Shown piece after piece: positions 17,534 through 18,534 of a stretch of DNA of 43,714 bases. The first letter of the stretch is position 1, and each line of letters opens with the position of its first letter. The notes under the pieces are model-generated. The model ran no database searches. It was not told the origin of the DNA and saw only the letters and a list, made by a program, of their open reading frames with translations. A program made the position numbers and the translations under genes. The stretch comes from a virus, in UHGV virus genome UHGV-0175557; one strand, given 5' to 3'.

Positions 17534-17542
17534 CGTGATATA
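17534..17542 (+). promoter_or_regulatory. extended -10 promoter element TGATATAAT
   Basis: Exact TGnTATAAT at 17534-17542; weak -35. Confidence 0.4.
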
Positions 17543-17546
17543 ATCG

Positions 17547-17574
17547 GCCTCAGTGTGTTAACTGAGGCTTTTTT
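17547..17574 (+). terminator. intrinsic terminator (gcctcagt-gtgtta-actgaggc then tttttt) abutting the next start codon
   Basis: 8-bp stem, 6-T run ending 1 nt before ATG 17575; the 3' arm contains the only SD-like GAGG. Confidence 0.6.
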
Positions 17575-18534
17575 ATGGCTACTAAAGACCCATACCCGGA
17601 TATTTCAGACAAGTATGACGCTCGCATTCGCGAAGCACTTGATGTCGTGTGGGAAAACGTGCGTCGTAGTGAGTCGTTAGCTAACCTGGAATACATCATT
17701 GAAACTCAGGGTATTGCCGGGCTACTCCCCATTCTTGAAACACTCCCTGATGAACTTAGTGCACAGTTGCGCCCGGTTATTGAAGACGCGATCGCCGAAT
17801 CAGGTCGTGTAGTCGTTCAGGTTTTACCGAAAGCGGCTGTGACAGGTCCGGTTGTGTTCAGTCTGGTCACCCCACAGGTCAGTACATACATCAACAACTA
17901 TGTCGGACAACTGATCCGTGAAGTCAGTGACGAAACAGTCAAAGCTGTTCAGATTGCTGTTAACCAGGGTGTGGTAACCGGACGAAATCCGCGTCAGATA
18001 GCCCGTGATTTTCGATCATCAATAGGGTTAACCACACGGCAAGAAATGACGGTTCAACGTCTGCGATCAGCACTGGAAAAAGGTGAAGCAGGTTATGTAA
18101 ACAGTCTGACAACAGTTACAGACAGCGCAAAGAACGCTGTAAGTGCCGGGAAACTATCACAGGCGAAGATTGATCAGATAATCGAACAGACACGCTTGCG
18201 TTACGTAAAACAGCGCACAGAGACAATAGCGCGTACTGAATCACTTCGTGCTGTATCCGTTGGTCAGGACCAGGCAATACGTCAGGGACAGATTACCGGG
18301 ACTATTAGTAATGAATTGCTGAAGCGCTGGTTATATAGAAAGGATGGTCGGACGCGTGATGCGCATATTTCCACGGGTGAAACGAATGGCTGGATACCAA
18401 TGAACAGACCGTTTTCAACGCCGTTAGGACCACTTATGTTTCCTCGTGATCCTAACGGTAGTGCAGCAAATGTGATTAATTGCCGTTGCCGGGTACAGTA
18501 CAGTTTGCCGGAAGATATAGGTTCGTTGGGTTAA
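17575..18534 (+). CDS. minor head / head morphogenesis protein, Mu F / SPP1 gp7 family
   Basis: 319 aa; C-terminal NCRCRVQY resembles the conserved Cys motif of this family as recalled; position after portal. Confidence 0.7.
   Translation: MATKDPYPDISDKYDARIREALDVVWENVRRSESLANLEYIIETQGIAGLLPILETLPDELSAQLRPVIEDAIAESGRVVVQVLPKAAVTGPVVFSLVTPQVSTYINNYVGQLIREVSDETVKAVQIAVNQGVVTGRNPRQIARDFRSSIGLTTRQEMTVQRLRSALEKGEAGYVNSLTTVTDSAKNAVSAGKLSQAKIDQIIEQTRLRYVKQRTETIARTESLRAVSVGQDQAIRQGQITGTISNELLKRWLYRKDGRTRDAHISTGETNGWIPMNRPFSTPLGPLMFPRDPNGSAANVINCRCRVQYSLPEDIGSLG

Follow-up and report, generated by a model that had tools for sequence, protein, structure and literature searches.

Gene neighborhood of the MuF-like head gene

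The stretch of DNA analyzed here (the window) is the whole 43,714-nucleotide (nt) sequence of the virus genome UHGV-0175557, and our subject is the leader of one of its head genes, in which a promoter-like element, a terminator-like hairpin, and a ribosome-binding site (RBS) fit into about 40 bp before the ATG at 17575. The gene (17575 to 18534, plus strand) codes for a head morphogenesis or minor head protein of 319 amino acids (aa) of the Phage_Mu_F/SPP1 gp7-like type (MuF), which matches Pfam PF04233 (E = 9.3e-10; 39.7 bits against a gathering score of 29.6) and is 99% identical to the "head morphogenesis protein" of phages Bas82 and PJ16. Its start codon is fixed by a conserved N terminus, M-x(1-3)-K/R-D-P-Y-P. 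Positions 16900 to 18600 are 96 to 98% identical to the corresponding region of the E. coli phages vB_EcoS_PJ16, KarinMuster_Bas82, AVIO78A, and PDP46 and about 80% identical to that of the Salmonella phages 9NA, SP069, and Sasha and of Klebsiella phages such as Carvaje. The window is that of a 9NA-like E. coli siphophage, and its close relatives are virulent 9NA-like siphophages. The virion genes of such phages keep a canonical order, with many small novel genes in between (PMC4153490), and the map of Bas82 shows the same order with small novel genes interspersed.

Upstream of the MuF gene lies a co-oriented accessory cassette (16277 to 17531, plus strand) in which a gene for a DUF6378 protein is followed by a small open reading frame (ORF), NinH, and, as the last entry of the ORF list before the leader, a 47-aa ORF (17388 to 17531). 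The Pfam matches are 1.6e-18 for NinH and 2.5e-07 for DUF6378, and homologs of the cassette genes are annotated as coding sequences in PJ16, Bas82, and AVIO78A. This cassette is presumably the source of transcription reading in toward the MuF gene. The portal gene (12324 to 13679) lies 3.9 kb farther upstream, with a minus-strand block that includes dUTPase in between; in the window, inserted accessory blocks separate the portal and MuF genes. Since the MuF gene stands directly behind the portal gene in a distant relative (L028; 48% identity), the head gene of the 9NA group has been severed from its ancestral operon. The other end of the MuF gene (18534) shares 4 nt with the end of a convergent minus-strand ORF (18531 to 18707), and no terminator-like hairpin between the convergent units was detected in 18480 to 18760. 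This 3' junction varies among relatives: in PDP46 it holds an additional minus-strand gene of 924 nt, and in Sasha a terminator is annotated behind gp28.

Anatomy of the leader

The first element of the leader, TGATATAAT (17536 to 17544, plus strand), has the makeup of an extended -10 promoter, with TG at -15/-14, one intervening base, and a perfect hexamer, TATAAT (17539 to 17544), bearing T-12, A-11, and T-7. An earlier note on this DNA had placed the perfect element at 17534 to 17542; the sequence is indeed present but lies 2 nt farther downstream, positions 17534 to 17542 being CGTGATATA. As judged from the sequence, no convincing -35 element accompanies it: the corresponding position (17516 to 17521) is TCTTCC, which matches at two of six bases and lies inside the 47-aa ORF, and the upstream sequence is unrelated between clades, as would suit -35 independence. 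A generic promoter scan did not report TGATATAAT because it requires a -35 element, an omission with no bearing on extended -10 promoters.

The hexamer ends 1 nt 5' of an RNA hairpin, GGCCTCAGT/GTGTTA/ACTGAGGCT (17546 to 17569), which was retrieved both by RNAfold and by a terminator scan (nine pairs, tail TTTTTATG). It consists of a 5' arm (17546 to 17554), a 6-nt loop (17555 to 17560), and a 3' arm (17561 to 17569), forming nine pairs that include a closing G·U and five G-C pairs, with a predicted energy of -15.3 kcal/mol (RNAfold). The 3' arm contains the Shine-Dalgarno (SD) sequence GAGG (17564 to 17567), which precedes the ATG by 7 nt and, as the earlier note had observed, is the sole SD-like 4-mer in the leader. 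The stem is followed at once by a U-tract, TTTTT (17570 to 17574; six T's counting 17569), that adjoins the start codon (17575 to 17577). From this geometry and the standard sigma-70 spacing rule, we infer that transcripts from TGATATAAT would start at C17551, A17552, or G17553, 7 to 9 nt after the hexamer and inside the 5' arm of the hairpin.

The features of an intrinsic terminator are thus present in the form of a stable GC-rich stem-loop and, in the window and the enterobacterial clade, a U-tract directly 3' of it. In the GenBank record of Sasha, a terminator (13633 to 13655) is annotated at the same position, overlapping the RBS (13651 to 13654) of gp28, without an annotated promoter. The best explanation of the arrangement is that a single hairpin would serve as both a terminator stem and an SD-sequestering stem. 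An Rfam search of 17300 to 17800 with E values of up to 10 gave only chance matches (e.g., Spot_42, at 18 bits against a cutoff of 80).

The promoter-like sequence alone is not remarkable in the window. TGNTATAAT was found twice against 2.07 copies expected, and GTGATATAAT with up to two mismatches was found 55 times against 53.9 expected; given this lack of enrichment, it is not a motif that repeats throughout the phage. The other perfect copy (37815) falls within a minus-strand ORF (35359 to 37866) and has no abutting hairpin. The combination of parts is rare, however. We defined the module as an SD 4-mer sequestered in a hairpin (-8 kcal/mol or stronger) with TGnTAnnnT abutting the hairpin base, and we scanned both strands of the window for it at each ATG and GTG (3,000 positions). 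A sequestered SD was found at 94 of the 3,000, an abutting TAnnnT in addition at 9, and the TG as well at a single position, 17575.

Conservation of the module across relatives

We compared the leader in 23 relatives with 38 to 99% protein identity, drawn from E. coli, Salmonella, Klebsiella, Vibrio, and metagenomic phages. The geometry is shared by 16 of the 23, in which TGnTAnnnT ends between 2 nt before and 2 nt after the base of an SD-sequestering hairpin; in all 16, the -10 element stands 27 to 31 nt from the ATG, with or without a T-run. The module before the MuF gene is thus confirmed as a real feature with conserved geometry. The earlier proposal of an extended -10 element likewise holds up in silico, in that the element keeps a fixed distance to the hairpin and to the ATG in every module-bearing relative. 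Given where the -10 element ends relative to the stem base, transcription in all 16 lineages is predicted to begin about 7 nt (7 to 8 nt) downstream, at nt 5 to 9 of the 5' arm, as the earlier note had supposed for the window.

The closest relatives (13 GenBank sequences and 11 IMG/VR contigs) keep (T/C)GTGATA(T/C)AAT, 2 nt, GCCT(C/T)AGT, a loop, (A/G)CTGAGGC, TTTT(T/C)T, and ATG. What varies is the loop, the 2-nt linker, and the coding sequence ahead of the block; the upstream gene of the Klebsiella phages is an unrelated one. Among near-identical contigs, substitutions in the promoter avoid the TG, T-12, A-11, and T-7, as in CACATGATATAAT of L015, where a G-to-A change lies just 5' of the TG, and GTGGTATAAT of L023, which has TGG for TGA. 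The stem of 9NA has a U·G where other close relatives have a C-G pair.

A more distant set, which provides the decisive evidence, comprised contigs with homologs at 48 to 86% protein identity and annotated phages at 31 to 57%. Four of these contigs (62 to 86% protein identity) have different stems with compensatory changes and an unchanged geometry, namely, L029 (TGATATACT-g-GCCTCAG...CTGAGGC-TTTTTTA-ATG), L026 (TGTTAAACT-g-GCCCTTAT...ATAAGGGC-TTTTTT-ATG), L031 (TGTTAATAT-a-GCCTTCATA...TATGAGGGC-TTTTTT-ATG), and L032 (TGGTATACT-g-GCCCTCA...TGAGGGC-TTTTTT-ATG). The module is also found in six Vibrio phages with 38 to 40% identity (VpaJT_1, 13VV501A, K459, 1.250.O, 1.046.O, and PS65A.1), where TGCTATACT, TGATATACT, or TGCTACAAT is followed by one base and then an unrelated hairpin with 11-nt arms and energies of -17 to -22 kcal/mol. 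In this hairpin, GGAG is part of a 3' arm that extends as far as the AUG or enters it, and no T-run follows. A T-run is likewise missing from the contig L018 (92% identity), in which the -10 element and stem are kept and TGAATC stands in its place; in the form TTTT(T/C)T, it is found in the E. coli, Salmonella, and Klebsiella relatives and in L026, L029, L031, and L032. The terminator hairpin of the earlier note is therefore upheld as a terminator-shaped, covarying RNA stem in this clade, annotated as such in Sasha, but its terminator character is clade specific. By these patterns, SD gating would be the deeply conserved function, and the terminator U-tract is an enterobacterial addition.

When the seven outer pairs were tabulated for the five distinct enterobacterial stems, pairing was intact in all 35 cells, and four of the seven pairs had changed on both sides, against 0 in slid controls; since the arms-only alignment used for counting is artificial and has only five distinct rows, we take this result as supportive rather than statistical. 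That alignment was preferred to a MAFFT alignment of the whole module, which misaligned the 5' arms because the linker lengths differ. The stems of 9NA, L031, Carvaje, L029, and the Vibrio versions contain G·U pairs, which are mismatches on the other strand and in a DNA palindrome; the selected structure is therefore the plus-strand RNA. On the promoter side, nine distinct versions of TGnTAnnnT are seen in the relatives, all at the same position, and this recurrence at a fixed position appears to be the informative part rather than an independent consensus. A profile-based scan of IMG/VR retrieved only very distant loci (25 to 41% identity) from unrelated environments, which were left out on account of their uncertain start codons and promoter rules.

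Folding of the two transcript types and orientation of the upstream gene

The two transcripts that could cover the start codon differ sharply in predicted structure. On read-through RNA, each of the four bases of GAGG has an unpaired probability of 0.00, and opening of 17562 to 17579 costs 14.3 to 14.4 kcal/mol. RNAs started at 17551 to 17553 retain only 2 to 4 nt of the 9-nt 5' arm, and opening the same segment costs 6.7 to 7.0 kcal/mol, about half as much. The occlusion of the RBS on read-through transcripts, likewise claimed in the earlier note, is thus borne out in silico, with the SD fully paired and about twice the opening cost. The same relation holds in the 16 module-bearing lineages, where the cost is 12.9 to 21.6 kcal/mol on read-through RNA versus 4.2 to 9.9 kcal/mol from the predicted internal start.

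The orientation of the upstream gene provides a natural control. No SD-sequestering hairpin was found where the upstream neighbor is divergent (Proteus RS10pmA/L034, Morganella Henu15/L027, and L033), an arrangement in which no read-in is possible. In RS10pmA, an extended -10 element, TGTGGTAAACT, is kept 43 nt before the ATG, and the hairpin is gone. Both the promoter and the hairpin are absent where the start is coupled to a preceding ORF, as in L030 (GTGA overlap), L028 (after portal), and RDJL Phi1 (taaATG). The pattern fits a role of the hairpin on transcripts from co-oriented upstream genes, although the small number and the relatedness of the lineages preclude a formal test.

Two side observations concern these junctions. 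A small zinc-ribbon-like ORF (...CPICGEWFSPKRTDHIVCRERCRQRKSRNSKK*) precedes the MuF gene both in L030 (1 to 60) and in L026 (1233 to 1500). In L026 it is not called as a gene and has a full promoter/hairpin/T-run module behind it, whereas in L030 its stop codon overlaps the GTG start of the MuF gene (GTGA) and there is no module; the two represent alternative solutions at one junction. In the Morganella-type loci with a divergent upstream gene (L027, about 1450 to 1500; L040, about 1145 to 1195), an inverted repeat, TTAGACATG-N9-CGTGTCTAA (TTATACATG in L040), is centered on TGCTAAGAT. Instead of an RNA gate, this repeat around an extended -10-like sequence may represent an operator for a repressor.

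A proposed composite insulator and its alternatives

On the basis of the above observations, we consider it probable that these 40 bp act as a composite insulator, tying expression of the MuF-like head gene to a promoter of its own. A polymerase reading in from the cassette at 16277 to 17531 would transcribe the entire hairpin (17546 to 17569). In the enterobacterial clade, the hairpin and U-tract would be expected to terminate efficiently enough to end most such transcripts at about 17572 to 17577, at the AUG; in all clades, transcripts escaping termination would have GAGG locked in the 3' arm and should be poorly translated. Host sigma-70 polymerase is predicted to initiate at the -35-independent TGATATAAT, with a start at about 17551 to 17553 within the 5' arm. 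The resulting mRNA, with a leader of about 23 nt, lacks the 5' arm and so could form neither the terminator nor the SD-hiding stem; it would be the sole well-translated mRNA of the gene.

Several points count against this scheme. The short transcript shows a weak alternative pairing of the SD with the coding region (unpaired probability of about 0.03 to 0.65 per base), and the invariance of the TG, T-12, A-11, and T-7 is in part a product of the search, which used that very pattern. The lineages are related, so that the counts are not independent events. Two relatives have weak or ambiguous versions: L024 combines TGATATTCT with a hairpin of -7.9 kcal/mol, and Enterobacter phage Mulvp2 has GATATAAT without a TG and a G·U-rich stem. 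A constitutive sigma-70 promoter gives no obvious temporal control, and the A/T-rich -10 element could be the upstream A-tract of a terminator. Finally, we found no 5' or 3' end mapping or expression data in the literature for any 9NA-like phage.

The last-named role of the -10 element leads to a simpler account, in which the hairpin is a plain intrinsic terminator ending the upstream cassette, TGATATAAT is an inactive A/T-rich stretch or A-tract, and the MuF protein is made from read-through RNA whose stem is opened by ribosomes. The hairpin and U-tract are canonical and annotated as a terminator in Sasha, the 9-mer is not enriched in the window, and for long transcripts RNAfold gives a longer stem, in which AUAAU pairs with the U-tract. 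This account nevertheless leaves unexplained why TGnTAnnnT stays in place in the Vibrio relatives and L018, which have no U-tract, and why substitutions in near-identical contigs spare the TG, T-12, A-11, and T-7. It would further have an essential head gene rely on a doubly disfavored RNA, with a fully paired SD and an opening cost of about 14 kcal/mol, and where there is no co-oriented upstream gene, it is the extended -10 element that persists and the hairpin that is lost (RS10pmA, TGTGGTAAACT). We regard a plain terminator as unlikely.

Alternatively, the palindrome could be a DNA operator bound at +1 by a dimeric phage or host repressor, with the RNA hairpin as a by-product. The inverted repeat lies exactly over the predicted start, and the different repeat of Morganella Henu15/L027 (TTAGACATG-N9-CGTGTCTAA) brackets the -10-like TGCTAAGAT before the MuF homolog. 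However, the arm sequences change freely between lineages while complementarity is kept, the loop varies from 5 to 8 nt, and the G·U pairs noted above (9NA, L031, Carvaje, L029, and Vibrio) are DNA-level mismatches that point to selection on the plus-strand RNA. The SD is, moreover, always within the 3' arm, with the U-tract next to it in this clade. We accordingly consider an operator very unlikely.

Least probable of all is a true start upstream of the hairpin, in which case every mRNA would carry the full structure as a 5' stabilizer or as the target of a trans-acting factor (a protein, a small RNA, or a standby ribosome) that opens the SD when it is needed: hairpins at mRNA 5' ends do stabilize mRNAs, and the start at 17551 to 17553 is a predicted one, but this reading needs another promoter, of which none is conserved (the -10 element ends 1 nt before the stem), the U-tract would terminate such transcripts before the gene, and no Rfam family matches the region.

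Other candidate roles of the locus were rejected outright: a CRP site, as TGTGA is present and a TCACA half-site is absent; an RNase III site, as stems of 9 to 11 bp are too short; a minus-strand promoter or bidirectional terminator, as the minus-strand tail GATTATAT is not a U-tract and there is no downstream minus-strand gene; and a pseudoknot of AACAC (17530 to 17534) with the loop sequence GTGTT, a pairing that relatives do not conserve.

Predicted promoter classes and timing in the phage

A second promoter-like sequence, the 15-mer AAAATAATTCTTGAC, occurs in eight exact copies, seven on the minus strand (2485 to 2499, 4677 to 4691, 6873 to 6887, 12237 to 12251, 14460 to 14474, 16229 to 16243, and 19802 to 19816) and one on the plus strand (20106 to 20120). 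It is followed by gGATTaCA and a -10 element, giving the extended consensus tttAAAATAATTCTTGACgGATTaCA, with a -10-like hexamer 17 nt after TTGAC(G/A). With up to three mismatches, the type was found 11 times against 3.0 expected. Each copy heads a block of genes, both the accessory blocks and the structural block from 20145 that contains the scaffold and major capsid genes. From its sequence, the 15-mer looks like the main sigma-70 promoter class of the phage, combining a UP-like element with a -35 element.

These promoters bear on the suggestion of the earlier note that the MuF leader marks an early-to-late boundary, which turned out to be an assumption: the scaffold/major capsid block stands behind the same AAAATAATTCTTGAC promoter type as the accessory blocks, and the annotation of the near-identical Bas82 genome lists no phage-encoded sigma factor, anti-sigma factor, or RNA polymerase. 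As this promoter type heads accessory and structural blocks alike, insulation or dosage control is at least as likely as timing. A bolder conjecture, which we put forward as a long shot, is that the module is an ancient portable expression cassette traveling with the MuF-like gene in Vibrio and enterobacterial siphophages, its extended -10 class being active when the -35/UP-dependent AAAATAATTCTTGAC promoters are shut off, for instance by an unrecognized AsiA-like anti-sigma factor among the small ORFs. If so, it would amount to a T4-like early/late switch built wholly on host sigma-70, in which the hairpin delays translation until late for a head protein whose early synthesis would be harmful or a waste.

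Several other junctions in the window combine promoters and hairpins in different ways. At 4620 to 4691 (minus strand) there is a second promoter-in-hairpin, where the -10 element TAGACT (4658 to 4653) of the promoter at 4677 to 4691 overlaps a 5' arm, GACTTCAGTT (4656 to 4647). This hairpin (-11.5 kcal/mol) has a 3' arm, AACTGGAGTT, that holds the SD GGAG for the ATG at 4620, and no T-run; the upstream co-oriented ORF (4862..4656) ends with a TAG inside the -10 element. The logic matches that of the MuF module, but the promoter there has a predicted -35 element. Just upstream (4862 to 4900, minus strand), the SD of a 68-aa ORF (AGGA, directly 5' of the ATG at 4862) is sequestered in a strong hairpin, GTTCCACACT...AGGAGTGTGGAAC (-18.2 kcal/mol), that no -10 element abuts.

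Directly after the major capsid gene (23635 to 23670, plus strand), an extended -10-like sequence, TGTGGTATCAT, abuts a strong terminator, AAGGGGTGGC-TTAT-GCTGCCCCTT-TTTT, with the same -10-to-stem geometry as at 17536; the SD of the next gene, GAGG (23679 to 23682), lies outside the stem. This element is kept as TGTGGTAACAT in 9NA and SP069 and is not found in Klebsiella phage Carvaje. Conventional terminator-then-promoter junctions are seen at 2485 to 2526 (minus strand), where the hairpin ACCCCGGAACTAACCGGGGT-TTTATTT runs into a AAAATAATTCTTGAC promoter, and at 8726 to 8790 (plus strand), where a hairpin (8726 to 8743) precedes the variant promoter ttaattcttgacaaattaca...tataaat. Lastly, the divergent intergenic region ahead of the portal gene (ATG at 12324) contains TGATATAAC (12275 to 12283, plus strand), 40 nt from that ATG and unaccompanied by a hairpin. 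Although similar to the MuF element, this sequence has a C at the critical -7 position and is therefore a doubtful promoter.

Comparison with known regulatory systems

In 9NA-like phages the structural genes are scattered among blocks of small accessory genes (PMC4153490). For such genomes the module offers a concrete rule by which one isolated structural gene might be shielded from whatever is inserted upstream of it. The geometry of the module, unlike its sequence, is retained in phages ranging from those of E. coli to those of Vibrio, which suggests that translation of the MuF-like protein from foreign transcripts is truly selected against. As a natural part of about 40 bp that would unite a terminator, a promoter, and an RBS gate, it could interest phage engineers. 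It also calls for caution in annotation, in that a "terminator" directly 5' of a gene need not imply that the gene is silent or expressed by read-through.

The closest parallels are the T4 late genes e, soc, and I-TevI, together with segB and the Aeh1 gene mobE, in which a hairpin sequesters the RBS and a late promoter lies in its 5' strand or beside it (PMC3014915, PMC2988022). Long transcripts started upstream, such as the early read-through ones, hide the RBS and are silent, and those from the -35-less promoter, which lack the 5' strand, are well translated, with a 100-fold effect for gene e (PMC3014915, PMC2988022). The MuF module resembles e, soc, and I-TevI in that the RBS is predicted to be sequestered on upstream transcripts (unpaired probability, 0.00; 14.3 to 14.4 kcal/mol) and, as judged by geometry only, in that the promoter is placed so that its transcripts would lose the 5' strand (16 of 16 lineages). 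It differs in that T4 uses the phage late promoter TATAAATA with gp55/gp33 and has true temporal control, whereas the MuF module has a sigma-70-type TGnTATAAT; in addition, the MuF hairpin carries a U-tract that should terminate read-in, and the gated gene is a head morphogenesis gene. By analogy, the module would work like the T4 cases without being a member of the T4 late-promoter class, whose promoter it lacks.

A second parallel comes from insertion sequences (IS). In IS10, transcripts from outside are said, following Davis, Simons, and Kleckner in 1985, to sequester the transposase RBS, while those from the element's own promoter reportedly start inside the stem. The likeness of the MuF module to the IS10/IS50 fold-back would lie in the protection of a gene from impinging transcription. 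The left end of IS200 has both a terminator that guards against such transcription and a stem-loop that sequesters the SD (PMC4513863). These are distinct hairpins in IS200, however, and the element's own mRNA retains the SD stem, whereas the MuF module would use one hairpin for both purposes, bypassed by an internal start. In IS10, IS50, and IS200, moreover, the protected gene is a transposase gene, as opposed to a phage structural gene here.

The module also recalls an ordinary tandem terminator-promoter junction, where a GC-rich stem and U-tract end one unit and a sigma-70 promoter starts the next. Here the arrangement is inverted and overlapping, with the -10 element upstream of the terminator stem and the predicted start inside it; because of this start, transcripts of the MuF promoter would escape a terminator that is physically downstream of the promoter. 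In light of these precedents, the regulatory trick itself is already known from T4 and the insertion sequences, and what the MuF module would add is its conservation from E. coli to Vibrio phages in a form that joins a sigma-70 extended -10 promoter with a terminator.

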